DNA from: an uncultured Clostridia bacterium
Lineage (GTDB): Bacteria > Bacillota > Clostridia > HGM11327
DNA length: 64,000 nucleotides
Reading direction: 5' to 3'
NCBI GenBank assembly: GCA_945918795.1
Contig: CAMEIT010000001.1
Span: 915-64,914, forward strand
Shown here: one piece after another, positions 9,732 to 41,941 of the stretch
Layout of the letters: the number at the start of each line of letters is the position of its first letter
Numbering within the stretch: the stretch's first letter is position 1
Translations under genes and position numbers: made by a program
The notes under the pieces: model-generated
Seen by the model: only the letters and a program-made list of their open reading frames with translations
Told to the model about the DNA's origin: nothing
The model's database searches: none

Positions 9732-10763
<1,032 letters not shown>

Positions 10764-10769
10764 CTATAA

Positions 10770-11285
10770 TTAAAAATTTATTGTTTGACGAATAGTCGTA
10801 CTGCCCTTTTCAAGGGAGACACTGCCCGTTCGGCAGATTTCAAGTATTTTATAATCCCTCATAATATTGATAAAATCATCTATTCTTTGGGAGCTGTCCG
10901 CAAGGCGGAACATAATCGAGTTTTTTGAGTAATCCACCGTTACAGCGCCGAAGGCTTCGGCGGCTGTACGTATATCGTCGCGTGTTGCGGGATCGTTTTC
11001 CATTTTTATGAGCAGAAGCTCACAGCTTATGGAGTTATCAGCGGAAAACTCTTTTATGGAGCACACGTCGGGCAACTTATAAAGCTGATTCACAAGCTGC
11101 TGCTTATACGTCTCCTCGCCGTCAAAAATAACGGTGATACGCGAAAATTCGCTTGATTCCGTCTCACTTACCGTCAAGGCGCTGATGTTAAACTGCCTTC
11201 TGCGGAACATACTCGTTACACGGTTTAATACGCCGAATTGATTTCTCACAAGTACCGCTACTGTATATCGGTTCATATCAGTCAC
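10770..11285 (-). CDS. ilvN: Acetolactate synthase small (regulatory, ACT-domain) subunit
   Basis: VLVRNQFGVLNRVTSMFRRRQFNI ACT domain. Overlaps the ilvB stop. Confidence 0.9.
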   Translation of the reverse strand: MTDMNRYTVAVLVRNQFGVLNRVTSMFRRRQFNISALTVSETESSEFSRITVIFDGEETYKQQLVNQLYKLPDVCSIKEFSADNSISCELLLIKMENDPATRDDIRTAAEAFGAVTVDYSKNSIMFRLADSSQRIDDFINIMRDYKILEICRTGSVSLEKGSTTIRQTINF

Positions 11286-12945
11286 CCACCTTTACAATAA
11301 TGTCATCCATGCTTCCGCCCGGAGGCAACATGGGGAGAACAAATTCATCTTTATCTATTGCGCAATCGATTACATACACTCCGTTATAATCAAATGCACG
11401 CTTTAATGCCTCGTCAAGTGCTTTTGTATCCGATACCGCCTCTCCGTCTGCACCGAATGCACGCGCAAGAGCCACAAAATCGGTTTTGCGGTTAAGTACC
11501 GTATTTGAATAATGCTTGTCAAAGAACAGCGTCTGCCACTGTCTTACCATTCCGAGCACGCCGTTATTCATAATCAGAATTACAAGCGGCACGTTATACG
11601 AAACGGCAGTAGCAAGCTCATTCAAGCACATACCGAAGCTTCCGTCGCCCGTTACCAGAACACTGCGTTCCTTTGTGCCGAACGCCGCGCCGATAGCAGC
11701 TCCCAAGCCATACCCCATTGTGCCGAGGCCTCCGCTTGATACAAAGCGTCTTGCCTTCTTGAAGCACAAATTCTGTGCCGACCACATCTGATGCTGACCG
11801 ACGTCTGTTGCAACAGCAGTATTATCACCAAGATACTTATTCAACGTCAGTATAGCTCTGCGCGGTGTAAGACCGTCACGGTTGTCAATATAGTCTGACT
11901 CTTCCTTTTTGAAAAGATTTATTGTATCATTCCAATTCGATTTTTTGTTTTCCGTAATAAGAGGAAGTAATTTTTCAAGCGTAAGCTTTACATCGCCCCT
12001 CAGTCCGCACACTGCATTTACATTTTTGGAAAGCTCGGAGCCGTCCACATCGATATGAATTATTTTGGCACCTGCCGCAAATTTCGCACGGTTGCCCGTA
12101 ACTCTGTCGTTAAATCTTACCCCGAGCGATATGATAAGATCCGCATGGTGCATAGCCATAGACGAAGCATAATGCCCGTGCATTCCCTGCATACCGAGAA
12201 ATCTCGGGTGTTGCGTCGGTATTCCCGAAAGTCCCATAAGCGAACAACCGATAGGTGCGTCTATTTTTTCGGCAAGGCAAAGCATTTCGTCCTGTGCCCC
12301 GGAAGTAATAAGACCGCCCCCAAAATAAATATAAGGTCTTTTGGACATATTTATATATTCCGCCGCTTCCTTTATGCGTACATCCTTTGCCGCCAAAGGC
12401 TGATCCGCTTCAACCGGAGGCTCCGGCGTATATTCGCATTTTGCTATCTGTACGTCCTTAGGTATATCTATAAGTATAGGACCGGGTCTACCCGATTTTG
12501 CAAGCTTGAATGCTTCTCTTATTGTGTCTGCAAGATGCTCAACCGAACCGACAAAATAATTATGCTTTGTTATGGGGAGTGTAACGCCCGTAATATCGAT
12601 TTCCTGGAAGCTGTCGGTACCTATCTGAGTTGTCGGCACGTTGCCGCAAATGGCGACTAACGGAACGGAATCAAGATATGCCGTTGCAATGCCCGTGACA
12701 AGATTCGTTGCTCCGGGGCCTGATGTGGAAATAACGACTCCGACCTTGCCCGTAGTTCTTGCATATCCGTCCGCCGCGTGAGCAGCACCCTGTTCATGTG
12801 CCGTCAGAACATGATTTATCTCATTGCTGTATTTATAAAGGCTGTCATAAACATTTATTATTTGTCCGCCCGGATAGCCGAACACGGTATCACAGCCCTG
12901 TTCTATAAGTGTTTTAACAACAATATCCGCGCCTGAAAGAACCAT
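11278..12945 (-). CDS. ilvB: Acetolactate synthase large subunit (TPP-dependent)
   Basis: TPP-binding motif GDGSFGM, 555 aa. Confidence 0.95.
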   Translation of the reverse strand: MVLSGADIVVKTLIEQGCDTVFGYPGGQIINVYDSLYKYSNEINHVLTAHEQGAAHAADGYARTTGKVGVVISTSGPGATNLVTGIATAYLDSVPLVAICGNVPTTQIGTDSFQEIDITGVTLPITKHNYFVGSVEHLADTIREAFKLAKSGRPGPILIDIPKDVQIAKCEYTPEPPVEADQPLAAKDVRIKEAAEYINMSKRPYIYFGGGLITSGAQDEMLCLAEKIDAPIGCSLMGLSGIPTQHPRFLGMQGMHGHYASSMAMHHADLIISLGVRFNDRVTGNRAKFAAGAKIIHIDVDGSELSKNVNAVCGLRGDVKLTLEKLLPLITENKKSNWNDTINLFKKEESDYIDNRDGLTPRRAILTLNKYLGDNTAVATDVGQHQMWSAQNLCFKKARRFVSSGGLGTMGYGLGAAIGAAFGTKERSVLVTGDGSFGMCLNELATAVSYNVPLVILIMNNGVLGMVRQWQTLFFDKHYSNTVLNRKTDFVALARAFGADGEAVSDTKALDEALKRAFDYNGVYVIDCAIDKDEFVLPMLPPGGSMDDIIVKVGD

Positions 12946-17862: not shown

Positions 17863-19050
17863 TTACAATATTTTAAATCCTTCATCACGCAGAGACTGTG
17901 TGATAAGTCTTACGTGTTCATAATCTCTTGTTTCCATTTCAATGCGCAAAAAGCAACCGTTTACGCTTTCCGTATTGCCTTTTTCGTAATGCACTCCCGT
18001 AACATTTCCGCCGCAGTCCGCAATTATCCGCGAAATATCCTTAAGCTGTCCGGGCTTGTCTATCAGTTCTATAAGAAGACTCGATGAACGCCCCGTATTA
18101 AGCAGACCTCTGTCTATAACTCGCGAAAGGCTCGTAACGTCAATATTTCCGCCCGATACCACGCTCACAACTCTCTTGCCCTTAAGCGGGAACTTGTCAA
18201 ACATTACTGCCGCAACAGCCGCCGCGCCTGCGCCCTCCGCAATCATTTTTTGTTTTTCAATCAGTGCAAGTATGGCACTTGCAACCTCGTCATCACTTAC
18301 CAAAGCGATGTCATCAACATAATCATTTACAAGAGCATACGTATTTTCGCCCGGCTGTTTAACCGCAATGCCGTCTGCAATAGTATGTACCGATTTCAGA
18401 CATTCGATTTTATTGTTCTTTATCGAATTGTACATACTCGGTGCTCCCGTCACCTGCACGCCGTAAACCTTTACCGAAGGGCGTATCTGCTTTACGGTAT
18501 ACGCGATGCCCGAAATCAAGCCGCCGCCTCCGACAGGCACCGTAATCGCATCGATATTATCAATATCATTCAATATTCAAGCGCTATTGTTCCCTGCCCC
18601 GCAATAACGTTTTCATCGTCAAAAGGATGAACAAAAGTATAACCCTTGCTCTCTTTCAGCTCAAGAGCTTTCCTGTATGCGTCATCGTAACAGCCCTCTA
18701 CAAGGCAAACATCCGCGCCGAAGCGCTTTGTTGCTTCGACCTTTGAGATAGGTGCCGTATCAGGCAGACAAATCAATGATTTTATTCCGTTTTTTTGCCG
18801 CAAGCGCCACACCCTGAGCATGATTGCCGGCTGAGCAGGCAATAACGTCCCTTTGTTTTTCTTCCTCTGAGAGCATTGCGATCTTATATGCCGCGCCCCT
18901 CACCTTGAACGAGCCCGTAATCTGTAAGTTTTCCGGTTTTAAGTACAGCTCGCACTCCGGCGCAATGCCGTAAGCCCTTACAAGATCGGTTTCACGTATT
19001 ATATTTTTCAGCACAGTCTGTGCGTTAAACACTTTGTCAAGCGTCAGCAT
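17863..19050 (-). pseudogene. ilvA: Threonine dehydratase (ilvA) split into three ORFs by two single-base frameshifts
   Basis: The N-terminal piece 18760..19050 carries SFKVRGA and SAGNHAQGVA. The middle piece 18570..18842 reads ...ICLPDTAPISKVEATKRFGADV. The C-terminal piece 17863..18573 carries VPVGGGGLISG plus an ACT-like tail. The frame changes fall at an A7/T7 run (18790-18796) and at gaatattg (about 18570-18578). Confidence 0.8.
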
Positions 19051-19086
19051 TAAATAAACCTCCTCAAATTGCAACAAGTATAACAA

Positions 19087-19420
19087 AAACCCGTCTCAAA
19101 GCCTTATTTAAGCTTTGAGACGGGTATAAATTACAGCATTTACACTCGCGGTACCACTCAAATTGCGGATACACTTGTCCGCCACCTCTTCGAAGTCAAT
19201 CAACTTCTATGCACTTACGCAGCATTCGCGGGGAGCGCCTACACGGTATTATGTATACCTTTCGGACTTCCGGCTCAAAAGTGATAGGAAATTCTGCAGT
19301 CCTTTATCGGGTTTCCACCGTCCCCGACTCTCTGAGAAAATCGTTGCAGGTTCCGTCTTTATCAACGCCTTTATTTTTCGAAGTCTATCAACCTCTATGC
19401 ATTTACGCAGCAATCACGTG
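19087..19420 (-). promoter_or_regulatory. T-box riboswitch leader upstream of ilvA, with the terminator hairpin at 19090-19128
   Basis: The minus strand carries AATTTGAGTGGTACCGCGAG (T-box consensus AATTAGGGTGGTACCGCG), an AGAGAG stem-I motif, and then the hairpin cccgtctcaaagc...gctttgagacggg plus a TTTTT run immediately 5' of ilvA. The UGGU bulge fits a discriminator A, as in Leu, Ile and Val tRNAs. Confidence 0.75.
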
Positions 19421-19574
19421 ATCCCCTACTTTTTCATAAAGATGTTCAGGCATCCGGCTCGGAAGGGAGAAATCTCAAGCATATCCATACCGATTTGCAT
19501 CGTCCATCGGCTTTCTGCAATGTTTCCGCTCAGACAGTCTTCGTCATCGCCTTTAGTATTATTTAATTTCGCAT

Positions 19575-19663: not shown

Positions 19664-20470
19664 TCAGACATTCCTGTAAGGCTTATTCATATCAAGCTCC
19701 GCAAATTCATGTGCCGAATGACGTTTATCCTCAGGCGGAAGCTCGCGCCAGTTGCCGTACAGTGCCGAAAGATACTCTTCATATTTTTCAGGACCGTATA
19801 CAGACAGTCCCTCAAACGAATATACAGTCGGTTTGCCGTATATATCCTTTGACATTATCTCTTTTGTTCTGTACGGGCTTACAAGGTCGCCCACAAAGTC
19901 ACAATCGTCAAAATCACGCTGTGAGCATAATTTATCGATATTGACAGACATTTTTTTTTCGTTCAAAGGCAAGCACTTTCCTATTAAAGCGGCTACATTT
20001 TTCCACCATTTTCTGTCTTTTCTGTATGCGCACACACGCATTGCGCGCATCATATTGAGCCTGTCTATCTCTTTATAATTTTGTATTGCTTCATCATGGG
20101 AATTGCCTATACCGTCAAGTGGGAAAATATCGATATAAACACCTCTTTTTATATTGCGGCGCGCAACCTCTGTCATTGAAGTATTCGTATCGTAAAGCTT
20201 TGCATAAGCGTATACATAATCACGTGCCTCGCTCTTCGGTGATTCAACCACGTAATGCTCCTGCGGCTCTTTTAATAAGCGGATCAATTCTTCATAATCC
20301 TTTCTCGGCATTGCAATGTCAATATCATCGTCCCACGGTATAAATCCCTTATGACGTACAGCGCCGAGCATTGTTCCGCCTATAACATAATATCTCAGTT
20401 CATGCTCGTCAATATATTTTACAAGCCACGTGAGCATTTCCAAAAGTTTTGTTTGTAATGGGTTCAACAT
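19664..20470 (-). CDS. licD: LicD-family phospho-headgroup transferase
   Basis: IGGTMLGAVRHKGFIPWDDDIDIAMPR, a DxD nucleotidyltransferase-fold motif. AGGTG sits 7 nt before the ATG at 20470. The longer ORF start at 20584 overlaps ppd and is unlikely. Confidence 0.8.
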   Translation of the reverse strand: MLNPLQTKLLEMLTWLVKYIDEHELRYYVIGGTMLGAVRHKGFIPWDDDIDIAMPRKDYEELIRLLKEPQEHYVVESPKSEARDYVYAYAKLYDTNTSMTEVARRNIKRGVYIDIFPLDGIGNSHDEAIQNYKEIDRLNMMRAMRVCAYRKDRKWWKNVAALIGKCLPLNEKKMSVNIDKLCSQRDFDDCDFVGDLVSPYRTKEIMSKDIYGKPTVYSFEGLSVYGPEKYEEYLSALYGNWRELPPEDKRHSAHEFAELDMNKPYRNV

Positions 20471-20493
20471 TTTTATCACCTTATTATACTGTA

Positions 20494-21612
20494 TTATTCT
20501 GCAAGCCGAGCCATAAAAGCTTCTTTGTTTTGTTTTGCAGTCGTCGTCGGGCGACCGAGATCGCCTCTGGCGCCTATTGCACATTTCACTTCAATTAATG
20601 AAAGCTTATTCCCGAGCTTTGCTTTATTAAGTTCTTCGTCCAACTTTTCAAACGAATCAACACTTACCGCATTCTCATATCCGCAGCCCTCAGCCACCTT
20701 TACCAGATCAACATTTGCCATTACAGTCGGCTGACCGCCCACCGTTTCATGTGCGCCGTTATTGATCACTATATGAACAACGTTTTCAGGAGCATTTGCG
20801 CCGAGCACTGCCATTGCACCCATGTGCATCAAAGCGGCACCGTCTCCGTCGATTATCCATATCTTTTTCTCCGGCTTTTGAAGAGCAATTTCAAGTGCAA
20901 TGCTCGAAGAATGTCCCATAGAGCCTACCGTCAGGAAATCGTATCCGTGAGATTGCTTGTTTGCCTCTCTTATTTCAAACAGCTCTCTTGAAGCCTTGCC
21001 TGTCGTGGAAACTATCGTATCATCAGCGCTTACTGCGGTAATATGCTTTATAATGTCTTCACGAAGCATTGTGTTATTGTTTTCATACTTGACCTTTCCG
21101 TCAAACTCAAGAGCGCCCTTTCTGACAACGAATGCTACCTGCTTTCCTTTTTTGAGGAGCACATTAAACTCTTGCATTTTCTCACGCACAGCCTCATCTG
21201 TTGTATCCTTTGAAATGATCATGTATGCAATATCCATATCCTCCAGAAGTCTGCACGTAACCTCGCCCTGATATATATGCTGCGGTTCGTCGTGAATACC
21301 CGGTTCGCCTCTCCAGCCCACTATGAAAATACACGGTATACCGTACACCTTATCATTCATAAGCGATGCAACGGGATTGATTATATTGCCAATGCCGCTG
21401 TTCTGCATATAAACAACAGGTGTTTTGCCCGTCGCCAGATGATAACCTGCCGCAAGGCCTACTGCGTTTCCCTCATTTGCGGCAATAATATGATTTGTTC
21501 CGTTCACGCCGTAAATAGAAATGATGTAATCGCACAGTGCTTTCAGCTGTGAATCAGGCACACCCGTAAAAAAATCGGCATTCAATATATTCACTAAGCT
21601 TTCCGCTTTCAT
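20494..21612 (-). CDS. ppd: Phosphonopyruvate decarboxylase (TPP-dependent)
   Basis: N-terminal FFTGVPDSQLKALCDYI and the TPP fold, 372 aa. Overlaps the upstream ADH gene. Confidence 0.8.
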   Translation of the reverse strand: MKAESLVNILNADFFTGVPDSQLKALCDYIISIYGVNGTNHIIAANEGNAVGLAAGYHLATGKTPVVYMQNSGIGNIINPVASLMNDKVYGIPCIFIVGWRGEPGIHDEPQHIYQGEVTCRLLEDMDIAYMIISKDTTDEAVREKMQEFNVLLKKGKQVAFVVRKGALEFDGKVKYENNNTMLREDIIKHITAVSADDTIVSTTGKASRELFEIREANKQSHGYDFLTVGSMGHSSSIALEIALQKPEKKIWIIDGDGAALMHMGAMAVLGANAPENVVHIVINNGAHETVGGQPTVMANVDLVKVAEGCGYENAVSVDSFEKLDEELNKAKLGNKLSLIEVKCAIGARGDLGRPTTTAKQNKEAFMARLAE

Positions 21613-22649
21613 TTAAGTATCCTCCCGTACATTTCTTTCAGTTCACTTTCCGTAAATTGAACAGGATTATTCTTCAGCCTTACAGGATTAACCGACTCCG
21701 CAAGAAGCGTTATTTCATGCTCTCTGTCTCCTGCCGCAGAAGGATTCTTAATGCCGTATTCGGATAATACATTTTTGAACCATTCAACGGCGTCCTGAGG
21801 CGTGCTTCTGCCCAATGCTTTTGCTATCTCGCAAAACAAGGCTGTAAGCTTACCTTCGCAGTCCTTTTTCAGCATCATGCTCCACACCTCGGGCAAGCAT
21901 ACCGCAACAGCATGACCGTGAGGCAAATTATACATCGACGTGAGCTTATAGCTCATTGCGTGTGCAGCCGTTGTCTGAGAAATATTTATTGCTCTGCCCG
22001 AATAATTTGCGCCCTCCATTATTTTTTCGGCTGCCGATTCGTCGTTTTCTTTTATGTAGCTGTCCATATTGGCTGTAATAAGCCGCATTGCCTTTTCGGA
22101 ATAAATTCTTGAATTAACATCGGCATTTACCGACCAATATGACTCTATGCCCTGACACAGTGCGTCAAGCATCGTACATTTTTTCTGATATAAAGGAAGT
22201 GTTTTCAAAACACCCGGTTCAAACAAAACGTAATCCGGGATCACCGACTCATTGCCCAATGATTCTTTACTGCCGTTTCTGTATACAACAATGTGCCTTG
22301 TCGATTCGCTTCCCGTGCCTGCGGTTGTCGGAACCGCGATAATCGGTATTGAAATTCCGGAATCAAGCTTAATGCACTTTGCAACATCAAGAGAGCTTCC
22401 GCCGCCTACCGCAACGATAACATCGCATTTTTCCCGCAACAATAATTTTACACCCTTTTCAGCGTCATCGTGAAGCGGATTCGATGTAAAAGCATCAAAT
22501 ACAGTATGCGGTATTGCAATATTTTCTATCGTATCCCTTATGTTAAGGAAGCGAAATGAAGCATCGCATACGAGCAAAAACTTTTTCGTGTTCAGATCGT
22601 TCAGAAGCTTTTCCAAATTTTCGATTCCGTTTATAAAAATCTGACTCAT
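21609..22649 (-). CDS. Group III iron-containing alcohol dehydrogenase, likely phosphonoacetaldehyde reductase (FomC/PhpC-like)
   Basis: The AVGGGSSLDVAK glycine-rich NAD motif and the His ligands of the Fe-ADH family. Sits between pepM and ppd. Confidence 0.65.
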   Translation of the reverse strand: MSQIFINGIENLEKLLNDLNTKKFLLVCDASFRFLNIRDTIENIAIPHTVFDAFTSNPLHDDAEKGVKLLLREKCDVIVAVGGGSSLDVAKCIKLDSGISIPIIAVPTTAGTGSESTRHIVVYRNGSKESLGNESVIPDYVLFEPGVLKTLPLYQKKCTMLDALCQGIESYWSVNADVNSRIYSEKAMRLITANMDSYIKENDESAAEKIMEGANYSGRAINISQTTAAHAMSYKLTSMYNLPHGHAVAVCLPEVWSMMLKKDCEGKLTALFCEIAKALGRSTPQDAVEWFKNVLSEYGIKNPSAAGDREHEITLLAESVNPVRLKNNPVQFTESELKEMYGRILK

Positions 22650-22650
22650 T

Positions 22651-24657
22651 CTATTCCTCCGGTATAAGAGTAATTATATCCTTAATAGGCATACACAAAT
22701 CGTCGCATTCTTTCGCTCTGTGATTTTCAAGTATTGTTTTTGCCGCATTCTGCATTGCGGGGAATCCCGTTCTTGTCAGCTGGTTAGCGTAAATGATAAC
22801 ATTCGCACCCATTTCTTTCCATTCGTCCTCATAAACAGTATTGAATGACGTCGGAACGAGCACAATAGGCGTTATTGTGTCTTTTGCGCGGAATTTTACA
22901 ATAAATTCTTTAATTTCAGTCGGTTCATTTTTTCTTGAGTGAATCATTATCGCATCGGCTCCCGCCTGAACAAACGCAAATGCTCTCTTGAGCGCATCCT
23001 CCATGCCCTTTTCGAGTATTAAGGATTCAATTCTCGCACATATCATAAAGTCCTTTGTTTTCTGCGCTCTTTTGCCTGCGGCGATTTTTGCCGAGAAATT
23101 TTCAATTGAGTCCTGCGTCTGCTGAACTTCATTGCCGAACAAAGAATTTTTCTTAAGCCCCACCTTGTCCTCAATAATGACCATCGAAACGCCCATTCTC
23201 TCAAGAGATCTTACCGTATACACAAAATGCTCCGCAAGACCGCCCGTATCGCCGTCGAAAATAATAGGCTTGGTGGTTACTTCCATAATATCGTCAATCG
23301 TTCTGAAGCGTGACGTCATATCAACGAGTTCAATATCAGGCTTGCCCTTTGCCGTGGAATCGCAAAGCGAGGATACCCACATCGCATCAAACTGATACGT
23401 TCTGCCGTTTTGCAACACTGTGGTTTTTTCCGCAATAAGGCCTGTAATTCCGCTGTGTGCCTCAAGCGCCGTCACTGTTTTTTTGAGATTTATAAGCTTT
23501 CTGAGTCTGCCTCTCCTGTAATCGGGCATTCCGAGCTGGAGACGCGATTGTTTTTCCAATTCATCATATCTTGAGTCCTTATCATAAGGGAATTCGACAA
23601 GCTCGCCGCCGTAGCCGTTCAGTATTTCAACGACCTCTTCCCTTATGGGCTTCTGGAAGCCTTCCTGCCAATCGTCTCCGTGTACAACTATGTCGGGCTT
23701 AAGCTCATTCAATACGTCCCTGTATGAAAGCGTTTCCTGCTTTATGACTCTACTTACGCCCGAAATATTTTCAAACAATGTTTTTCTGTCCTCATACGGT
23801 ATCAATGGGAAACGCTTAAAGCTTGCCACAGCCTCATCAGACAGTATGCCGACGACTAATTTACCGAGCTTTTCGGTTTTTTTGATAATGGCAATATGGC
23901 CGCTGTGAAGCATATCTGTCGAAAAGCACATATATACCGTTCTGTTTTCCACTTTTTTCAGCTTTGCCTTTACAATTTCAAGATCCTCCGGCGTATCTAT
24001 TTCCGCGCACAGCTTGCCTTTGGCATCAAACGCATAAATACCGCACTCATCGGAAACTCGGTTGAAAGCGTTCTCCGCGTAAACCTTTACGTTGCCGCTT
24101 TCGCAGAATTCCACAATTTCTTTGAGCCATACATTCCAGTCGTCTTTATTCAGCTTATATAAAGCCTGAGCTTCCATGGCGGACTCGAAAAATTCAATTC
24201 CGACCTTTTCCACTCTGCCGTTTTTTACTACCGCCTTGAAATCCTTATCCGGGAGAGGCTCTGTCGACGACACCTTCATACAGCTTTGCTCTGTTCTCAA
24301 AACGCCCAGCAATACCTCAAAATCGAATACAAGATCGCCGTGCATCAAAAGAATATCATCATCTAAAAGCTCTCTTGCGCAGTAAATGGAGTAAATATAA
24401 TTTGTCTCGGAATATTTCGGATTATTCACAAAATCGATATGCAACGGCAAATTCAGAGATTCGCAATAATCCATAAGTATTTTGTCAAAATAGCCCGTCG
24501 TCATAACCACTTCGGTAATGCCCGAAGCCACTATCAATTTCAACTGACGGCTAAGTATCGTATCAGCTGCGGAAATTTCGGTCATACATTTAGGATGAGT
24601 TTTTGTAATATCGCCCATTCTGTGGCCGAGTCCCGAATTAAGAATCAATGCTTTCAC
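22651..24657 (-). CDS. pepM: Three-domain fusion: a LicC/PntC-like nucleotidyltransferase, an HxGH (TagD/GCT-like) cytidylyltransferase, and phosphoenolpyruvate phosphomutase
   Basis: Residues 1-230 start MKALILNSGLGHRMG (MobA-like NTase). Residues 235-375 carry FSTDMLHSGHIAI (HIGH motif). Residues 380-668 carry IEDKVGLKKNSLFG and a PEP-mutase/ICL-fold C-terminus. Confidence 0.8.
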   Translation of the reverse strand: MKALILNSGLGHRMGDITKTHPKCMTEISAADTILSRQLKLIVASGITEVVMTTGYFDKILMDYCESLNLPLHIDFVNNPKYSETNYIYSIYCARELLDDDILLMHGDLVFDFEVLLGVLRTEQSCMKVSSTEPLPDKDFKAVVKNGRVEKVGIEFFESAMEAQALYKLNKDDWNVWLKEIVEFCESGNVKVYAENAFNRVSDECGIYAFDAKGKLCAEIDTPEDLEIVKAKLKKVENRTVYMCFSTDMLHSGHIAIIKKTEKLGKLVVGILSDEAVASFKRFPLIPYEDRKTLFENISGVSRVIKQETLSYRDVLNELKPDIVVHGDDWQEGFQKPIREEVVEILNGYGGELVEFPYDKDSRYDELEKQSRLQLGMPDYRRGRLRKLINLKKTVTALEAHSGITGLIAEKTTVLQNGRTYQFDAMWVSSLCDSTAKGKPDIELVDMTSRFRTIDDIMEVTTKPIIFDGDTGGLAEHFVYTVRSLERMGVSMVIIEDKVGLKKNSLFGNEVQQTQDSIENFSAKIAAGKRAQKTKDFMICARIESLILEKGMEDALKRAFAFVQAGADAIMIHSRKNEPTEIKEFIVKFRAKDTITPIVLVPTSFNTVYEDEWKEMGANVIIYANQLTRTGFPAMQNAAKTILENHRAKECDDLCMPIKDIITLIPEE

Positions 24658-24725: not shown

Positions 24726-26564
24726 TTATTTTACCAAATGCCATACCTGCATGGCGCTTGCGCCCCTGTTTGCAAAAGCGTAATACGGAATAAGCACGGC
24801 ATCAAAGACTCTGAAGCTGTCATGCTTAGGGCTGTAAAGAGGCGCATTTTCGTTGGCGTCTCTGCGATAAGCCTTTACCGTAAGCGTTGGAACGCCAAGC
24901 TCGGCATTCTTTCCCGTGCGGAATTTCGCGTGGCTGTCTATTCTTATATCCCTTAAGTATTCTGTGTTATCGACAGCTTCCATGCAATATACGACAGGCC
25001 CTCTCATTACGGCGTATCTTCCGCAATCAAAAACCGCCTCCGGACGTGCTTCAACAAGCTGCACTTTCATTTTGAAATCAAGCTCAATCGTCTGATTGTC
25101 CTTGACGTCAAAATATTGATAGCCCTTTACCGTCTGATACTCATCAGAGTCGCACCAGAACGGTATTCTGACTGCAAGCCTTGTATCGGCACCTTTTACC
25201 GTTATTTTTACCTTTCCGTTTTGAGGATATGAAGTTTTCTGTTCTATAACAAAGCTTTCACCGTTTCTGTCTATTTGAGTCGTGCTCTGCATAAACTGAT
25301 GCACATAAACAGTGTCATCATCGTAAGTATAAAGCATATTTGCTATCGACGGAATAAATCTGACTATATTGGGCGGACAGCATGAGCACAGGAAAACCTC
25401 GCTTCTTTCTTGGCGCGGCAAATGAATGCTTACGTGGCTTACATCTCTGTCCCTTGTGTGCATATAAGGAATTATCTCAAGCGGATTTTCGTAGAAAAAA
25501 GCCTTACCGTCAAGCGATACGGACGACAAAAATCCGTTGTATATAATTCTTTCGATAGCGTCGGAATATTTTGAATCGGCATCGAACTTAAGCATTCTCA
25601 TTGCAAAAAGTGCAACGCTTATCGCGGCGCAGGTCTCCGTATACGATATAACATTGGGCAGATCGTAATCAACTGTATACGCTTCGCAAGCCGCAGACGA
25701 ACCGACTCCGCCCGTAATATACATTTTTTTATTTACTATGTTGTCAAAAATGCGCTCGCAAGCAGATTTCAGTTCTTCATCGCCCGTTCTGAGTGCAACA
25801 TCAGCCATAGCGCAGTAAAGATACCCTGCTCTTACCGCATGACCTACCGCCTCGGTCTGCTCTCTGACAGGCGCGTGGGACTGATTTGCAAAGCAGTTTG
25901 TGAGCTTATCGCCCGAATCATTCTGCACTCCGCGCTCATTCAAAAAGAACAGAGCAAGCTCGAGATAACGTTTTTCTCCCGTGCAGTCGTACAGCTTTAC
26001 AAGCGCAAGCTCTATCTCCTCGTGACCCGGCGTTCTAAAGCCCGTATCACGGTCGATTTTGAACCGTTTTTCTATATAATCCGCATAACGGCACATGGCA
26101 TCAAGAAACTTTCTTTTGCCCGTCGCCTCATAATATGCCACAGCCGCCTCAATCAGATGCCCCGCACAGTAAAGCTCATGATTATCCCTGTTTGTAAATA
26201 TGTTCTCAGGCTCCTGCGTCTGATAATACGTATTGAAGTATCCGCACGGCTCCTGATTCTTTACTATCAAATCAACTACTTCGTCAACTATTTTCTCAAG
26301 CTTCGCATCCTTTTTCTGCCGCGTAATATACGCCGCACCTTCAATCCACTTTGCTACGTCCGAATCCCAGAAAATATGCGGCTTATTCGGCATTCCCTCT
26401 TTCCAATCACATCTGAATGCGTCAAATCTGCCCGTTTCCTTGAATCTGTCATAAACTGCCCAAACGGTTGTTTTGCGAAGCATTTCCTGCTTCTTCTGCC
26501 AGAAGCCGCCTGTTATTTTTGTTTTTGAATAGTCGGATGTTATCATACAGCTACCTTTCCGCAT
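24726..26564 (-). CDS. Glycoside hydrolase family 127 (beta-L-arabinofuranosidase-like, DUF1680)
   Basis: HELYCAGHLIEAAVAYYEATG, and C-terminal cysteines of the GH127 zinc site, 612 aa. Confidence 0.75.
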   Translation of the reverse strand: MRKGSCMITSDYSKTKITGGFWQKKQEMLRKTTVWAVYDRFKETGRFDAFRCDWKEGMPNKPHIFWDSDVAKWIEGAAYITRQKKDAKLEKIVDEVVDLIVKNQEPCGYFNTYYQTQEPENIFTNRDNHELYCAGHLIEAAVAYYEATGKRKFLDAMCRYADYIEKRFKIDRDTGFRTPGHEEIELALVKLYDCTGEKRYLELALFFLNERGVQNDSGDKLTNCFANQSHAPVREQTEAVGHAVRAGYLYCAMADVALRTGDEELKSACERIFDNIVNKKMYITGGVGSSAACEAYTVDYDLPNVISYTETCAAISVALFAMRMLKFDADSKYSDAIERIIYNGFLSSVSLDGKAFFYENPLEIIPYMHTRDRDVSHVSIHLPRQERSEVFLCSCCPPNIVRFIPSIANMLYTYDDDTVYVHQFMQSTTQIDRNGESFVIEQKTSYPQNGKVKITVKGADTRLAVRIPFWCDSDEYQTVKGYQYFDVKDNQTIELDFKMKVQLVEARPEAVFDCGRYAVMRGPVVYCMEAVDNTEYLRDIRIDSHAKFRTGKNAELGVPTLTVKAYRRDANENAPLYSPKHDSFRVFDAVLIPYYAFANRGASAMQVWHLVK

Positions 26565-28682: not shown

Positions 28683-28868
28683 GTGCCGTATATCGGCATT
28701 GCTCCGTAAAAGCCCTAAATAAAGTCGCAAAAATCAATGCTCATCTTGCCGCCATACTCTCGGCGGGAAGATGAGCGAGCTGCAAAGCGTTTTAAAGTTT
28801 TCGGAGCTTGCGTAATAATCTCGAAGAGATTATTACTGGCTTTTTCAAAAGCGTCCAAGAAAACATCA
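28683..28868 (+). repeat. Structured intergenic repeat, family A copy 1 (bidirectional terminator module)
   Basis: Nearly identical to 45282-45448 and, inverted, to 47093-47230. It holds the hairpin ctcatcttgccgcc/ggcgggaagatgag and a second hairpin gtaataatct/agattattac followed by a T-run. Confidence 0.8.
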
Positions 28869-30389
28869 GTTCATTAATTCATTATTATTTTGTATATCTT
28901 TTTTAAATTCCTCATTAAGTTCGGGGTAAGCGGAGAGCATAGGTTCAACGTCCTTACCGTTTTTACGATCGAAGTAATTTTTAGTTATTTTAACAACGAG
29001 GCCGCTAAGGAGCACGAGTGCAACGAGGTTGGGAATTGCCATAAGTCCATTACACGTATCGGAAATAGCCCAAGCGAGTTCACCGTCTATAACAGCGGAA
29101 GCAACGATAAGCAGAACATAAATCACCTTAAAGACGAGCACAGCGACCTTTTTACCCTTTTGACCGGCTCTTCTGAAAAGGAATTCAACGCATTTCTCAC
29201 CGTAATAAGACCATGCGAGAATCGTTGTGAATGCAAACAACGGCAAAATAATGGAGAAAACGACCGTTCCGAACGTACCGAACACATTACTGAAAGCATT
29301 CATTGCGGCAGCTGTATCGGAAACAGCCTGAGCGCCGAAAAGCTGCTCTTCATTATACGACGTAAGAATAACGAGTGCTGTAAGCGTACAAACAACGAAA
29401 GTATCGAGGAAAACCTCAAATATTCCCCAAAGTCCCTGTTTAACGGGTTCGCGGGTAGCAGAAGCGCTGTGTGCGATAACGGAAGAACCAAGCCCCGCTT
29501 CGTTTGAGAAAACGCCTCTTGCAAGACCTTTTTTGATTATCTGTGAGAACACAAATCCGCCGAAGCCGCCTACTGCCGCCTTGAACGAGAAAATGCTTGA
29601 GAAAATCATTCCGAAAGCATGACCGATTCTGTCAATGTGAATAAATATAAGAATGAGTGCGAGGATTATAAAGAGAAGTGACATGAACGGAACGAGTATT
29701 GAAGCAACCTTACCGATTCTCTTGATTCCGCCGATTATAATAAGTGCAACAAACAGTGCAACCACAACGCCTATTATAATTGCCACCACTTTACTGCTTC
29801 CGTCGGAAACGAATGCCGCCTGAAGCGTTGTCGAAATCTTATTTGTCTGAGCGCCGCTCATGCCTATAGCGGCAAGAACGCAGAACAGTGCCGCAATATA
29901 GCCGAGCCAATTCCATTTAAGTCCCTCGGAAATATAATACATCGGTCCGCCCGAAAGATCGCCGTTCTTTTCCTTCTTTCTGAAGAAAAGACCGAGAACG
30001 TTTTCGGCATAGTTTGTTATCATTCCGAAAAATGCCGAGAGCCACATCCAAAACACAGCTCCGGGACCGCCTGTAAGTATAGCCGACGTAACGCCTATTA
30101 TATTGCCCGTGCCTATTGTACCGGATACAGCGGCTGAAAAGGCTTCAAACTGAGAAATAGAATTAACTTTTGTATCCTTCTGTTTATCTTTGCCTCTGCC
30201 GATTGCTTTTACTGTCGGCACGATTGTCGTTTTAAGTGAATATCCGAACTTATGTACCTGCATGAATTTTGTGCGGATAGTAAGCAGAATACCCGTTCCG
30301 AGGATAAGCACTATCATAGGCCATCCCCATACAATGTTGTTAATAAAGGCGTTTACCTTTGTAACAACATTAACTATTGATTCCCACAT
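28866..30389 (-). CDS. Alanine/glycine:cation symporter (AGCS family)
   Basis: 507 aa, multi-TM, with the AGCS signature region FEAFSAAVSGTIGTGNIIGV. Confidence 0.9.
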   Translation of the reverse strand: MWESIVNVVTKVNAFINNIVWGWPMIVLILGTGILLTIRTKFMQVHKFGYSLKTTIVPTVKAIGRGKDKQKDTKVNSISQFEAFSAAVSGTIGTGNIIGVTSAILTGGPGAVFWMWLSAFFGMITNYAENVLGLFFRKKEKNGDLSGGPMYYISEGLKWNWLGYIAALFCVLAAIGMSGAQTNKISTTLQAAFVSDGSSKVVAIIIGVVVALFVALIIIGGIKRIGKVASILVPFMSLLFIILALILIFIHIDRIGHAFGMIFSSIFSFKAAVGGFGGFVFSQIIKKGLARGVFSNEAGLGSSVIAHSASATREPVKQGLWGIFEVFLDTFVVCTLTALVILTSYNEEQLFGAQAVSDTAAAMNAFSNVFGTFGTVVFSIILPLFAFTTILAWSYYGEKCVEFLFRRAGQKGKKVAVLVFKVIYVLLIVASAVIDGELAWAISDTCNGLMAIPNLVALVLLSGLVVKITKNYFDRKNGKDVEPMLSAYPELNEEFKKDIQNNNELMN

Positions 30390-30905: not shown

Positions 30906-31280
30906 TCACACAGGGAAAGTGATGTCCCCGCACTCTGAGTGTTGCAGCTTTACTTCTTTGTCGGCATTTACAGTGAGCATTGCGTTGTCCGATTCACCGC
31001 TGATTATATATGTGCCGTCTGATTCTATTGTAACACTGCTTCCCGAGGCAAAAGCGCCTTTACCCGTTATCTGAGCGGTGTCGCCCGAAAATACGATATA
31101 TACCGCGCCCGTTTCAGTGTATTCACCGTTCAGATCCGATTTTGTGAAGTCAAAATCCATAGACGGTATATCGGGGGACGGTGCTGTGGGAGCGGGTGTT
31201 TCGCTCACATTCGGCGCTGTCGTACAGGCTGTAAACAGAAGTGATAATACCAATGCAAAAGCAACAAATATTTTTTTCAT
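30906..31280 (-). CDS. Small lipoprotein
   Basis: Signal peptide with an LFTAC lipobox, 124 aa. Confidence 0.6.
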   Translation of the reverse strand: MKKIFVAFALVLSLLFTACTTAPNVSETPAPTAPSPDIPSMDFDFTKSDLNGEYTETGAVYIVFSGDTAQITGKGAFASGSSVTIESDGTYIISGESDNAMLTVNADKEVKLQHSECGDITFPV

Positions 31281-31951
31281 AGCTCCTCATTTCTTTCAGA
31301 GGTATTTGCCAAGGTAATCTCCAAATTTCCGTTGCGGCATCTGAGCTGATCTATAAACTCCTTTGATGTGCCGCCATCTTTAAGTTCTATTTTATATAAA
31401 AGCTTATAAAGGCTTCCCATGTTGGAGGTTTTTACGCTTGCAAGCTCATGTCTTTTCGTATACTGACTGAACAGATCCTCAAACGCTTCGGAAAAGTTGA
31501 GCGTCTCGGGAATGGTTATGCGAAGCTCAAGCTCTCTTTCGGAGCGCAATGGAAGTCTTGCAAGAATGATAAGCGCCACGCAAAGTATAATCGAGAAAAG
31601 TATCGCAATGGCAACATATCCTGCCGCGCAGGCAAGCCCTGCCGTCATTACAAGGAATATAAGCGTTATCTCTCGTGCTCTGCCCGCCACCGAGCGGAAA
31701 CGAACAAGCGAAAACGCACCTGCCACCGCGATTCCCGTTCCGATATTTCCGTTTACCATTAAAATGACCGTCTCTATTATAGGTGCGAGCATGACAAGAG
31801 ACATTGCAAAGCTTTTTGTAAGCTTCGATTTATACGATGCGGCAAAAGTAACTATTATTCCGCACACAAATGCCACCGCCGTACAAATCAGATAATCCTC
31901 AAGCGTCAGAGCGCCCTCTATGACCGTATCAAAAATTTGAGGCATTTTCAT
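31277..31951 (-). CDS. DUF4956 membrane protein
   Basis: Multi-TM N-terminus and a soluble C-terminus. Typically pairs with a VTC-domain protein. Confidence 0.6.
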   Translation of the reverse strand: MKMPQIFDTVIEGALTLEDYLICTAVAFVCGIIVTFAASYKSKLTKSFAMSLVMLAPIIETVILMVNGNIGTGIAVAGAFSLVRFRSVAGRAREITLIFLVMTAGLACAAGYVAIAILFSIILCVALIILARLPLRSERELELRITIPETLNFSEAFEDLFSQYTKRHELASVKTSNMGSLYKLLYKIELKDGGTSKEFIDQLRCRNGNLEITLANTSERNEEL

Positions 31952-32684
31952 ATTCTCCTTTTATATTAAACTGTTTGATTTCATTTTCTCTGCACATAAT
32001 TCTGTACGCCGTTCCGCATTTCGAAAACGACGCCGGCAAAATGCCGCATTCATCAAGTGCGTGTGCAAGCCAAAGAGGCATTGCTCCGTTTGTTTTTATT
32101 TCCATAAGCACGTTGTTTTGTGGCAGTATCTCCCTGCCCGAAGAGCCATGCTCCAACATAAGGTCGTCGGCGCGAAAACGCGGTGCTGTGTCAAATGTTA
32201 TCCTCAGAGACGGGTCCTCACTTGCAAAATACGCCTCCCTCTCGTAGCTCAGCACTACCGCGGGCTTCGGCTTGTTGTAAAAAAACATCATGTAATCGAT
32301 CTCTCTCATTATCTGTGAATCAAACGGTTTTATTCCGTTGTCAATATATCGCCTTGCCTCTTCAAGAGTCATAGCCTCTCTGCGCTTGTATACAACGCCC
32401 TTATACTTTTTCTTTATTTCAAAAAACACCTTGCTGTCATCATCGGGCGTACCGTAGCTCCTGAGTCTCAGCTTTTCCTTGTATGATGTTGCTTCTATCG
32501 AGTTCCTTATCATGAGAAAATCCGAAGTGTCGAGATATATGTTCAATATTGTGTTTTTCGGGAATTTATCTGAAGAAAGTCTGCCTTTTATGATCGAAAG
32601 AAGCGCCTTATGCTGTTCTTTCGTTACAATGTATTTCTTTTCAATTCGCTTGAAAATACATATATCCCGCTCCATTTGCGTCAC
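31929..32684 (-). CDS. VTC-domain (CYTH-like polyphosphate polymerase domain) protein
   Basis: 251 aa, overlapping the DUF4956 gene. Carries the Arg/Lys/Glu-rich tunnel motifs of VTC. Confidence 0.6.
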   Translation of the reverse strand: MTQMERDICIFKRIEKKYIVTKEQHKALLSIIKGRLSSDKFPKNTILNIYLDTSDFLMIRNSIEATSYKEKLRLRSYGTPDDDSKVFFEIKKKYKGVVYKRREAMTLEEARRYIDNGIKPFDSQIMREIDYMMFFYNKPKPAVVLSYEREAYFASEDPSLRITFDTAPRFRADDLMLEHGSSGREILPQNNVLMEIKTNGAMPLWLAHALDECGILPASFSKCGTAYRIMCRENEIKQFNIKGEYENASNF

Positions 32685-39584: not shown

Positions 39585-41723
39585 TTATATTTCTTTAATA
39601 CCCAAACTCTTTAAATATTGATACGTCCCGTCATAATACTCAGGCAGTCGCGTGCTGTCTTCCCAAAAACCACTGACAGTTTTATTTGAGTTTCCGGCAG
39701 GAACGCATATAACCATTCCGGCTCTTGCGCGGGTAAGCAGTACCCGATATGCGTTCAACATATATTTTTGCAATTCGATATTGTTTTCTGTGTTACCGGT
39801 TTGTCTCACCCATTTTGTCTGCCCATTAAATCGATAAAAACACCATTTGCCGTTTTCATATCTCATATCAGCGTCCCAAAGCAGGCAAGTGTAATCAAGC
39901 TCCAAGCCTTGAACCTGAATTTCTGTTGCGGCATCCTCAAGATAATTCGATGATCTTGTGTCAACTTTATCCTCAAGAAACCAGTGAACTGCGTTCTCGT
40001 CACCCGACGGCAGAATATGTATTCCGAGTGGCTTATACCTCGCAGATTCTTTCGTTACAAGAACTCCGGTTCGTTCTGTGCCCCTCACTTTCTTATGAAG
40101 CCATTCCTTTGCCTTGGCCATATCTCTTGTCAAAACGATCGGATAATGGTCTTTTATCTCATCATATATCCTTGATGCACTTTCATCAAAAGACAATAAT
40201 GCGTGGACAAAAGCAGAGAGCTTTTCCGCCCGATATGATCTGAGCGAAACGCCCAAATGCAAGCTTTCATCAAATGTCACATGCCTATTTTCTTTCAGAA
40301 GCTCATTAACTTTTCCTTCAGCATACTCGGCTTGGATCAATTTCGGAGAAATATAAACGTTCCAATGAGGGAATCTTTCATTTAACGCTTTAATCCATTC
40401 GGATATTCCGGCTTCTCCGGTATTTATCTCTTGCCCACCTCCCACAAGGCAGACAATAGTTGCCCAATCCTCGCGCTGATCAAGCGACCAAATCAGAAAG
40501 GCAGCTTCCGACATGGGAAAATTCGGAACCTTGAGCTTATTTCCATATGTTCCGCCTCTTTTGAGATAATCCGCAAGCCTTTTGTGTGTCCATGACCGTT
40601 GAGCCTCGTCAAATATGGCAACATGCTCAACCTCACCGAATCCGGCCTTCTCCATTTTCACGGCCTTTTCAGGATCAATTTCAAGAACTCCGTTTTCAAC
40701 AGGATTCTTGATTTTTGCCAGCATATTATCGCGGTAGCGGTGAATCATCTGAATTGATTTGCTTACCTCACGACGGGAGTCGGTGAGCTTCTTTTTCTCA
40801 TTTTTATCGCGACACCGCTTGAAGTTATCTTGCGCAAGTGCCTCTGTTAATACTGCAACAAGAGGACCATTGCCGGACAAATAAACAGCACCTTCATCTT
40901 TAACCGGTTCGTCATGTCCCTGATATGTCTGCTTGATTGCAACATCAAGCCCGACAAGTGTTTTCCCGGCACCGGGAACTCCGGTTACAAAGCAGATACT
41001 TTTCTTCTGCTTTTCCTTGCTATCCTGAATGACTTTCAAAATATATGCAATCGTTTTATCGGTGGAAACCTTGTCTGCTTCATGGCGCGTTATATTTTCA
41101 ACTGAATGGTTCTCATATAACGATTTTGCTGCTTCAATGATCGTTGGTGTGGGAGCATAGGGGCTGATAATCCAATTTGAATTAACAGGTGATTCATTCG
41201 GAAATTTCACCAGCACCTCAGAAATCAAATTTGATATGCCATTTTCTCCGGAAACCAACGGATTTACCACCCTATCATCATATACCGACATTTGAATACT
41301 GGTGGACGAATCGTTATGCTTCGTTGCAATCAATATAGGCACAATTATTCTGTCTTGACTGAACTTATGAAAATTCTTTAAGTCAAGCGCATAGTCAAGA
41401 ACTTGGTCTATATCCGATTCTAATATTTTGGATTCCCCCACTTTGAATTCGAGACAAAACACAATCCCTTTTAATAATAAAACCACGTCAATTCTTTTGC
41501 CAAGTCGTGGAATATCATACTCAAAAATAATTTGCCCATTTTCTCCTGAATAGACGGACAAAACCTGCTTCATTATGGAAATTTCAGACTTCCACGCTTC
41601 TCTTGTAGTCGTAAGAGCTTCACCGTGGTATTTATCGCATAGAAGCCCGAGAAGAGAATTACTATCCGCATAAATAAATCTATCAAAACTATCATTGAAC
41701 AAACAGCGAGTGCTATCTCTCAT
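39585..41723 (-). CDS. DUF2075-family ATPase (SF1 helicase-like) with an N-terminal PD-(D/E)xK nuclease-like domain
   Basis: N-terminal EYDIP...RIDVVLL...CLEFKV (E/D/ExK pattern). Walker A FVTGVPGAGKTLVG. Walker B VAIFDEAQR. AAAGGAG sits 8 nt before the ATG at 41723. Confidence 0.7.
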   Translation of the reverse strand: MRDSTRCLFNDSFDRFIYADSNSLLGLLCDKYHGEALTTTREAWKSEISIMKQVLSVYSGENGQIIFEYDIPRLGKRIDVVLLLKGIVFCLEFKVGESKILESDIDQVLDYALDLKNFHKFSQDRIIVPILIATKHNDSSTSIQMSVYDDRVVNPLVSGENGISNLISEVLVKFPNESPVNSNWIISPYAPTPTIIEAAKSLYENHSVENITRHEADKVSTDKTIAYILKVIQDSKEKQKKSICFVTGVPGAGKTLVGLDVAIKQTYQGHDEPVKDEGAVYLSGNGPLVAVLTEALAQDNFKRCRDKNEKKKLTDSRREVSKSIQMIHRYRDNMLAKIKNPVENGVLEIDPEKAVKMEKAGFGEVEHVAIFDEAQRSWTHKRLADYLKRGGTYGNKLKVPNFPMSEAAFLIWSLDQREDWATIVCLVGGGQEINTGEAGISEWIKALNERFPHWNVYISPKLIQAEYAEGKVNELLKENRHVTFDESLHLGVSLRSYRAEKLSAFVHALLSFDESASRIYDEIKDHYPIVLTRDMAKAKEWLHKKVRGTERTGVLVTKESARYKPLGIHILPSGDENAVHWFLEDKVDTRSSNYLEDAATEIQVQGLELDYTCLLWDADMRYENGKWCFYRFNGQTKWVRQTGNTENNIELQKYMLNAYRVLLTRARAGMVICVPAGNSNKTVSGFWEDSTRLPEYYDGTYQYLKSLGIKEI

Positions 41724-41768
41724 TGGAACTACTCCTTTCAACCGCATATTTCCCGGGACTTATCCTTC

Positions 41769-41930
41769 TATCGCCGGTTCTCAGATTTATCCGGTACAAT
41801 CTCAATAATATCATTCATCGTGCAACCGAGTGCCGTACATATTTTAACCAAAACATCGCTTGAAACAGTTGCGCCGTCTTTTTTCATCTTTGCGAGAGTT
41901 GCGGGACTGATTACTATGGAGCAATAAATA
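41769..41930 (-). pseudogene. Truncated XRE-family HTH regulator (only the C-terminal part of the HTH remains)
   Basis: The minus-strand frame reads ...ISPATLAKMKKDGATVSSDVLVKICTALGCTMNDIIEIVPDKSENRR*. An in-frame stop lies immediately upstream, and the first HTH helix is absent. The remnant abuts the 3' end of the 984-aa gene. Confidence 0.55.
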
Positions 41931-41941
41931 TTTTAAATAAA

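Follow-up and report, generated by a model that had tools for sequence, protein, structure and literature searches.

In the fosfomycin pathway of Streptomyces, the cytidylyltransferase (CyTase) domain of Fom1 converts 2-hydroxyethylphosphonate (HEP) and cytidine triphosphate (CTP) to the cytidine monophosphate (CMP) derivative CMP-HEP (Cho et al. 2017, as cited by Rice et al. 2019, PMC6697681). The Pnt pathway (Tde1415, Ari1348; Rice et al. 2019) uses a nucleotidyltransferase (NTase) with a LicC-like fold, and passes the CMP-phosphonate to LicD-like transferases in glycan loci; the PntC enzymes that have been characterised are specific for 2-aminoethylphosphonate (AEP) only and are not fused to phosphoenolpyruvate mutase (PepM, also called Ppm). 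In the Lic pathway (LicA, LicC, LicD) of Streptococcus pneumoniae and Haemophilus, a cytidylyltransferase makes the donor and a LicD-family phosphotransferase with a DxD motif installs the head group on teichoic acid or lipopolysaccharide (LPS). Among 1485 non-redundant Ppm proteins, 33.0% are fused to PF12804, 23.6% to PF01467 and 2.9% to both (Rice et al. 2019). Here we analyse a protein of this last type, a 668-amino acid NTase-CyTase-PepM fusion encoded in a four-gene operon on contig CAMEIT010000001.1 of an uncultured Clostridia bacterium. All coordinates below are positions in the 64-kb stretch of this contig that we analysed (the window), and all four genes of the cassette are on its minus strand. 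The other three encode an iron-dependent alcohol dehydrogenase (Fe-ADH), a phosphonopyruvate decarboxylase (Ppd) and a LicD-family phosphotransferase. Judged from sequence, the cassette probably makes CMP-activated HEP that LicD places on a surface polymer, with the additional NTase working on a non-amine phosphonate.

Because Rice et al. tabulated Ppm proteins fused to both Pfam domains, the triple architecture was already on record. The window adds no new kind of system, and the four-gene operon is a correct annotation within a known, already inventoried architecture. An earlier note on this DNA called the fusion unusual, which was overstated: besides its 2.9% share of the 2019 census, the arrangement is carried by all of the 80 species-representative loci that are most similar to it (the best 80 of at least 555 stretches with motifs of this NTase subfamily, taken from one genome per GTDB species, and called the related loci below). 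In the full-text literature on Ppm fusions with two nucleotidyltransferases, on CMP-HEP transferases and on HEP-bearing glycans of the gut, we found only that census and the inventory of ppm gene neighbourhoods by Li et al. 2022 (PMC8942020). In that inventory, neighbourhoods with PhpC-like Fe-ADHs represent the HEP branch and make up 8.5% of the total, and almost none of them has a known product.

The three-domain architecture proposed in the earlier note was confirmed by Pfam and NCBIfam scans, by matches to solved structures and by the predicted fold of the NTase. The fusion gene (22651-24657) starts with GTG and has a ribosome-binding site, AGAGAGG, just upstream. Its PepM domain comprises residues 385-668 (22651-23505, including the stop codon). 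PF13714 (PEP_mutase) matches residues 385-643 with 180 bits, and with 390.3 bits the protein clears the cut-off of 319.55 set for TIGR02320, the PEP mutase equivalog. Isocitrate or methylisocitrate lyase in place of PepM is ruled out by the NCBIfam scores–the models for methylisocitrate lyase and phosphonopyruvate hydrolase fall far under their cut-offs–and by the Ppm-specific motif EDKxxxxxNS, which is present as EDKVGLKKNS at residues 496-505. The domain matches the structures 5UNC and 1M1B (E about 1e-38), and alignment to 1M1B shows that D441, D468, D470, E496, K503, N504, S505, R542 and H573 correspond to catalytic residues of Mytilus PepM; D441, D468, D470, R542 and H573 are invariant across the triple-fusion family.

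The middle domain (residues about 241-360; 23578-23937) is a CyTase of the Fom1 type. It matches PF01467 (CTP_transf_like) at residues 248-342 with 50.7 bits (threshold 21), and it aligns with the Fom1 CyTase structure 5X3D over 122 residues with about 55% identity (E = 8.9e-37), whereas glycerol-3-phosphate cytidylyltransferase is matched far less well (E = 3e-8). The HxGH motif (H251-S-G253-H254) is invariant in the family. Two domain identities given in the earlier note, a nucleotidyltransferase in the middle and PepM rather than isocitrate lyase at the C-terminus, therefore both hold.

The N-terminal NTase (residues 1-235; 23953-24657) is a more distant relative of the known enzymes. Its Pfam matches, both to residues 1-113, are marginal: PF00483 scores 24.4 bits (cut-off 21.2) and PF12804 scores 26.3 bits, just short of its cut-off of 27. 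By sequence the best solved relatives are 6PD1 (PntC, Tde1415) and 1JYK (LicC), both with E = 2e-9. An AF2 model of residues 1-238 is of high confidence (pLDDT 93.4), and the top Foldseek matches of this predicted structure are LicC (TM 0.81/0.84) and PntC (TMq 0.86), with inositol-1-phosphate cytidylyltransferases and MurU ranking next. LicC, PntC and the inositol-1-phosphate cytidylyltransferases are CTP-dependent enzymes whose substrates are small phospho-alcohols or phosphonates. The AF2 model of the full-length protein was only moderately confident (pLDDT 77, pTM 0.56): it has three folded domains joined by helical linkers but the PepM barrel is poorly modelled, and we did not use it for inter-domain geometry or channelling.

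Neither nucleotidyltransferase looks degenerate, because both domains are well conserved and both keep their catalytic signatures. Within a set of 75 triple-fusion sequences, pairs are on average 70% identical in the NTase, 72% in the CyTase and 85% in PepM. The NTase motifs G9-x-G11-x-R13...K23, H106-G107-D108, E195 and D221 are at least 97% conserved in this set, and G9, G11, R13 and K23 are invariant in the family. We therefore rejected degeneration of either domain, and conclude from the pattern of conservation that the N-terminal NTase is an intact second cytidylyltransferase under purifying selection.

The genes that follow the fusion supply candidates for the remaining steps. Ppd (20494-21612) scores 461 bits against the equivalog TIGR03297 (cut-off 312.5). 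The Fe-ADH (21609-22649) is a putative phosphonoacetaldehyde reductase in the role of FomC or PhpC; it belongs to group III and matches PF00465 with 110 bits and PF25137 with 91 bits. Equivalents of the metal ligands Asp196, His263 and His277 are conserved in it, in an alignment to a FucO reference sequence. Through three small loop deletions it is about 25 residues shorter than the median of its family. LicD (19664-20470; 268 amino acids) scores 174 bits against PF04991 (threshold 22.6), and its DxD motif, WDDDID, aligns with the catalytic region of FKRP, the only solved relative that it matched; it is a candidate CMP-HEP:acceptor phosphonyl transferase.

Homology and synteny together suggest the following pathway. 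The PepM domain would convert phosphoenolpyruvate to phosphonopyruvate, and Ppd would convert this to phosphonoacetaldehyde, pulling the unfavourable mutase equilibrium forward. The Fe-ADH would reduce phosphonoacetaldehyde to HEP, which the Fom1-like HxGH domain would join to CTP to give CMP-HEP. LicD would then move the hydroxyethylphosphonyl group to a hydroxyl of a surface glycan or teichoic-acid-like polymer, releasing CMP. Up to CMP-HEP this would be the chemistry of Fom1, Fom2 and FomC, and the likeness extends to gene structure: PepM lies C-terminal to the CyTase as in Fom1, and Ppd and a group III ADH are adjacent. The extra LicC/PntC-like NTase at the N-terminus is a difference from Fom1. 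With the Pnt pathway the cassette shares the fold and signature motifs of a LicC-like NTase, the fusion of that NTase to Ppm, and a LicD-like recipient of the CMP-phosphonate, but Pnt clusters encode an AEP transaminase where the window has an Fe-ADH as the branch enzyme, and the window protein has a second, HxGH-type cytidylyltransferase in the same polypeptide. The Lic pathway shares the general logic of donor and transferase, but it uses scavenged choline, has a kinase and makes a CDP-alcohol donor, whereas the head group here would be made de novo with a carbon-phosphorus (C-P) bond, without a kinase in the cassette, and activated as a CMP-phosphonate. According to Li et al. 2022, phosphonoglycans of Stackebrandtia nassauensis and Glycomyces likewise carry HEP, made via a PhpC-like ADH, on an exopolysaccharide. 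Those organisms are Actinobacteria with different gene clusters, for which that account reports no triple fusion, while for the cassette of gut and rumen Clostridia and Bacteroidota HEP is a predicted product.

The earlier note left the head group as either HEP or AEP. We favour CMP-HEP over an AEP product because Fe-ADH is the conserved partner of the fusion, because an AEP transaminase is missing, and because a histidine occupies the amine-binding position of the NTase. In PntC and LicC the amine of the substrate is contacted by an acidic residue, Glu104 in Tde-PntC and Asp105 in Spn-LicC (Rice et al. 2019); this position aligns with His106 of the window protein (in the motif LMHGDL), which is invariant in the family. 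A second acidic residue (Glu196 in PntC, Asp192 in LicC) could not be aligned reliably to the window NTase. No class V AEP transaminase of the PhnW type (PF00266) was found in the operon or in its flanks, in agreement with the earlier note, which saw no canonical phnW in the operon; nor was an AEP transaminase present in the 17 clusters of neighbouring genes that we inspected (c3-c19 of the 30 largest, from the 80 related loci).

A transaminase of another kind lies nearby. Directly upstream of the fusion gene, as the earlier note stated, are a gene of glycoside hydrolase family 127 (GH127; 24726-26564, minus strand) and, beyond it, a class I/II aminotransferase gene (PF00155; 26595-27794, minus strand). 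If these two genes formed one functional operon with the cassette, the product could be AEP or phosphonoalanine. They are on the same strand as the fusion and separated by short gaps (30 nt between aminotransferase and GH127, 68 nt between GH127 and fusion), a promoter and terminator scan predicted no terminator between GH127 and the fusion and only weak promoter-like sites upstream of the fusion, and Li et al. 2022 connect PF00155 aminotransferases with phosphonoalanine in a subset of Ppm clusters. Co-transcription of GH127 with the cassette, which the earlier note raised for both upstream genes, is therefore possible. A functional link is not supported. TBLASTN searches found homologs of GH127 and of the aminotransferase beside the fusion in none of the 80 related loci–the lone aminotransferase match, with 24% identity, is spurious–and in relatives that have the same LeuA the cassette, GH127 and the aminotransferase are all absent. 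The aminotransferase itself is most similar to the aminotransferase domains of MocR-like regulators (all below curated cut-offs) and to enzymes of the GntC/MppQ type, not to PhnW or PalB. The lack of co-occurrence and the absence of the pair from cassette-free close relatives led us to reject the two genes as members of the cassette. Together with the Fe-ADH as conserved partner and an NTase that lacks the amine-binding acidic residue, this makes synthesis of AEP or phosphonoalanine through the upstream aminotransferase very improbable.

All of the 80 related loci contain full-length triple fusions with 71-77% identity, and they come from Bacillota, Bacteroidota and one Sphaerochaetaceae metagenome-assembled genome (MAG) of the Spirochaetota. 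In a search of 5.8 billion proteins the best 120 clusters are all 626-678 amino acids long, with those of full length (668-678 amino acids) being 75-100% identical to the window protein. Nearly all of them share the three domains, although P0017 and P0018 have no NTase annotation. The few clusters with a name are called "phosphoenolpyruvate mutase" and derive from MAGs of Oscillospiraceae, Clostridia, Eubacterium or Christensenellaceae. Cultured carriers include [Clostridium] symbiosum ATCC 14940, Ruminococcus sp. FC2018, Xylanibacter ruminicola D31d and Bacteroides cutis Marseille-P4118. Because an exhaustive search of representatives at 50% identity yielded a single full-length one (P0121, 69% identity), we regard the triple fusion as one tight family. 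By TBLASTN with the window proteins, 78 of the 80 related loci have an Fe-ADH next to the fusion and 76 have a Ppd; independent clustering of neighbouring open reading frames (ORFs) placed the fusion in 75, ADH in 72 and Ppd in 71. Bacillota have the genes in the order fusion-ADH-Ppd, whereas Bacteroidota have fusion-Ppd-ADH. Fusion, Fe-ADH and Ppd thus form a conserved cassette across three phyla.

The fusion gene is far more conserved than its partners. In isolates of Bacteroidota and Bacillota (L039, L057, L061 and L064, with the fusion gene at 10001-12007 in each), the fusion proteins are 72-78% identical, whereas between phyla identity drops to about 50% in the adjacent Ppd and to 45-55% in the ADH, and Ppd splits cleanly by phylum. 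This contrast would fit horizontal transfer of the fusion gene, an exceptionally strong constraint acting on it, or a combination of the two. By sequence comparison, the movement or constraint of this gene seems to be independent of that of its neighbours. We take the cassette to be compact and horizontally mobile.

Profile searches found LicD in 35 of the related loci, sometimes in 2-3 copies, and TagF-like CDP-glycerol glycerophosphotransferases in 21; one or the other is present in 49. Glycosyltransferases of families GT2 and GT4, Wzx flippases and acetyltransferases also recur among the neighbours, as judged from clustering and from Pfam scans of cluster representatives. From the recurrence of LicD, TagF-like, GT2, GT4 and Wzx neighbours we regard the cassette as typically a plug-in to surface-glycan loci, and the idea of the earlier note that a CMP-activated head group is handed by LicD to a surface polymer is consistent with this context.

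The same context bears on the possibility that the product is a soluble phosphonate, as in the early part of the fosfomycin pathway, instead of a surface decoration. The cassette does have equivalents of Fom1, Fom2 and FomC, and in the window it stands outside any glycan locus. However, equivalents of Fom3 (the B12 radical SAM methyltransferase), Fom4 (HppE) and FomD were not found on L081, a contig of the same species that is 99% identical to the window, or among the scanned ORFs of the window, a scan that left out several of its shorter ORFs. The operon contains its own LicD transferase, and in most other genomes the cassette lies among glycosyltransferase, flippase, LicD and TagF genes, which also points to surface decoration and not to an antibiotic. 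We consider a soluble product the least probable of the outcomes discussed here.

The domains of the fusion also occur in other combinations. In loci L084 and L086, the NTase, a CyTase-PepM protein, ADH and Ppd are encoded by separate adjacent genes. An NTase-FeADH fusion (P0194, 616 amino acids; L087-L089, 8001-9851) is found near an APS-kinase-like gene, CyTase-PepM, methyltransferases and Ppd, and an NTase-CyTase-FeADH fusion (P0126, 751 amino acids; L090, 8001-10256) shares its locus with four LicD paralogs, a metallophosphoesterase and a CyTase-PepM that is encoded separately. The recurrence of the same domains in split or re-fused form ties the NTase to the HEP branch. For three more distant two-domain CyTase-PepM proteins (P0131, P0141 and P0158) the contigs were too short or too heterogeneous for a comparison of context that would bear on whether the extra NTase goes specifically with the Fe-ADH branch. 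A final form, P0306, is an NTase-CyTase didomain of 375 amino acids that is 69% identical to the N-terminal domain of the window protein, occurs on at least 23 contigs and takes its name from a Lentisphaerae MAG; it lies in a glycan locus with Wzy, glycosyltransferases and rmlABCD (L082/L083, 8001-9128). P0306 indicates that the pair of cytidylyltransferases can exist apart from the genes that form the C-P bond.

Several observations weigh against synthesis of CMP-HEP for a surface polymer by this cassette. The Fe-ADH scores only 136 bits against TIGR03405, the curated equivalog for Fe-ADHs of phosphonate clusters (cut-off 423.7), and it is not a close FomC/PsrA equivalog. In its segment LDALCQGIE, a glutamine occupies the position equivalent to the ligand His200 of FucO-type group III ADHs. 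In an alignment of 73 family ADHs and the window protein, made with the same FucO sequence, this position is Gln in 53 of 74 and His in 20 of 74, and by this measure Gln is a family-wide trait. Within reach of the cassette, 31 of the 80 related loci have no LicD or TagF-like gene by profile search, and in the window there are no glycan-assembly genes near it, so the acceptor polymer would be encoded elsewhere in the genome. At the P0306 loci L082 and L083 there is no PepM, Ppd or Fe-ADH within 8 kb. In the full-text literature we found no biochemical or chemical data on the window protein or on any member of the triple-fusion family. Lastly, if both cytidylyltransferases used one substrate, one of them would be superfluous, and the NTase may therefore have another function.

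On balance we infer that the cassette supplies the NTase with its substrate, a non-amine phosphonate that is most likely HEP or a derivative of it, a choice favoured by the existence of NTase-FeADH fusions. The NTase might instead activate a non-phosphonate such as phosphocholine, glycerol phosphate, inositol phosphate or a sugar-1-phosphate, giving two activated donors and a composite decoration. Its closest folds include LicC, inositol-1-phosphate cytidylyltransferase and MurU, the P0306 didomain sits in a Wzy-type glycan locus apart from the phosphonate genes, and many loci have several LicD or TagF-like transferases (that of P0126 has four LicD genes). Yet this NTase subfamily has been fused repeatedly to PepM or directly to Fe-ADH, it accompanies PepM, Ppd and ADH in every locus that we examined except the two with P0306, the cassette encodes no kinase or other enzyme that would supply a second substrate, and the histidine at the amine-binding position counts against phosphocholine. 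We regard a non-phosphonate substrate as unlikely.

Another possible division of labour has the NTase as the HEP cytidylyltransferase that feeds LicD, with the CyTase either acting on an earlier intermediate (phosphonopyruvate or phosphonoacetaldehyde) or having a structural or regulatory role for PepM. In favour of this, an NTase fused to Fe-ADH would take over right where HEP has been formed, and in nearly all cases the CyTase shares a polypeptide with PepM, the enzyme that makes phosphonopyruvate. Against this, the CyTase closely resembles the Fom1 CyTase, for which HEP is the demonstrated substrate, and a purely structural role is unlikely because HxGH and many other residues of the CyTase are invariant. 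We think this arrangement improbable.

It is also conceivable, with a probability that we place between those of these two alternatives, that the two domains carry out different activations: the HxGH domain would make CMP-HEP, and the LicC-like domain would activate, for example, HEP at its hydroxyl end or a phospho-alcohol that contains HEP, from which LicD and TagF-like enzymes could build a composite or repeating HEP-bridged polymer. A phosphonate-ester polymer of this teichoic-acid-like kind would add a new class to the surface polymers described so far, one spread horizontally among many gut and rumen species.

If HEP is the head group, as we favour, the cassette may have consequences beyond this genome. 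HEP-type surface decorations are chemically uncharacterised in gut commensals, and many gut and rumen Clostridia, Bacteroidota and Spirochaetota carry the cassette. Head groups linked through a C-P bond would withstand phosphatases, and they could change how phages, the immune system or glycan-degrading enzymes recognise their targets. They would also tie up phosphorus in a form that few organisms can recycle. With the minimal cassette now cleanly defined, its cultured carriers allow direct study. The triple-fusion family also poses a puzzle, in that a second intact cytidylyltransferase with a histidine-containing pocket is always kept beside the Fom1-like one.

The four minus-strand ORFs lie where the earlier note had placed them, and most of its description of the genes as overlapping or tightly coupled also stands: the gap between the fusion and ADH genes is 1 nt, ADH and Ppd overlap by 4 nt (ATGA), and these three genes are, on this arrangement, translationally coupled. 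The overlap between LicD and ppd does not stand. It belongs, with its 91 nt, to a LicD ORF of 306 amino acids, an ORF-calling artefact that we rejected in favour of an ATG at 20470 (M39 of the longer ORF) that has an AAGGTGA ribosome-binding site and lies 23 nt past the ppd stop codon. Gene callers picked the same 268-amino acid form on L081, and the LicD entry in the protein collection has this length.

Downstream of LicD no terminator was predicted by the promoter and terminator scan, and an Rfam scan of 17-31 kb at gathering thresholds found nothing inside the operon. About 60 nt past the LicD stop codon, at 19603-19575 (minus strand), is a perfect extended sigma-70 promoter (TTGACA-17-TATAAT with TG). 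It is followed by two tandem T-box leaders before ilvA, at 19388-19556 (48.7 bits) and 19113-19374 (67.6 bits), both of which score below the Rfam gathering score of 93, and by a strong terminator (19125-19089), also upstream of ilvA. Because this separate regulatory unit, which drives ilvA, starts right after the LicD stop codon, we take this point to be the functional 3' boundary of the operon.

Judged by its LeuA, the organism is close to Hominenteromicrobium sp. (Oscillospiraceae). In relatives that share this LeuA, unrelated genes precede an ilvA-leuA operon that is intact. The 90%-identity cluster of LeuA has 1459 members, compared with 13-48 for the clusters of the cassette proteins. 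The lack of the cassette in the same-LeuA relatives and the rarity of its protein clusters indicate that it occupies a strain-variable region.

In the window, the threonine dehydratase gene ilvA (17863-19086, minus strand) is split into three overlapping ORFs of 108, 90 and 236 amino acids, and on L081 it is split into ORFs of 160 and 236 amino acids, whereas same-LeuA relatives have an intact ilvA of 398 amino acids and no RidA gene between ilvA and leuA. The window ilvA is probably a genuine frameshifted pseudogene in this lineage.

Further from the cassette, a glycine riboswitch aptamer (RF00504; 30522-30621, minus strand; 59.2 bits, E = 2.4e-10) lies upstream of a Na+/alanine symporter gene (28866-30389). 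Adjacent genes for a VTC-domain protein and a DUF4956 protein, a pairing associated with polyphosphate, are located a few kb upstream of the cassette (31277-32684, minus strand). At 39585-44896 (minus strand) a Schlafen-group-3-like helicase of 720 amino acids adjoins a 984-amino acid fusion of a CoiA nuclease and a UvrD helicase, and the GC content of the 42-46 kb stretch is lower, at 0.37-0.39; this region may be a defence or mobile island. A 1020-amino acid protein with Listeria-Bacteroides repeats is encoded at 48817-51879.

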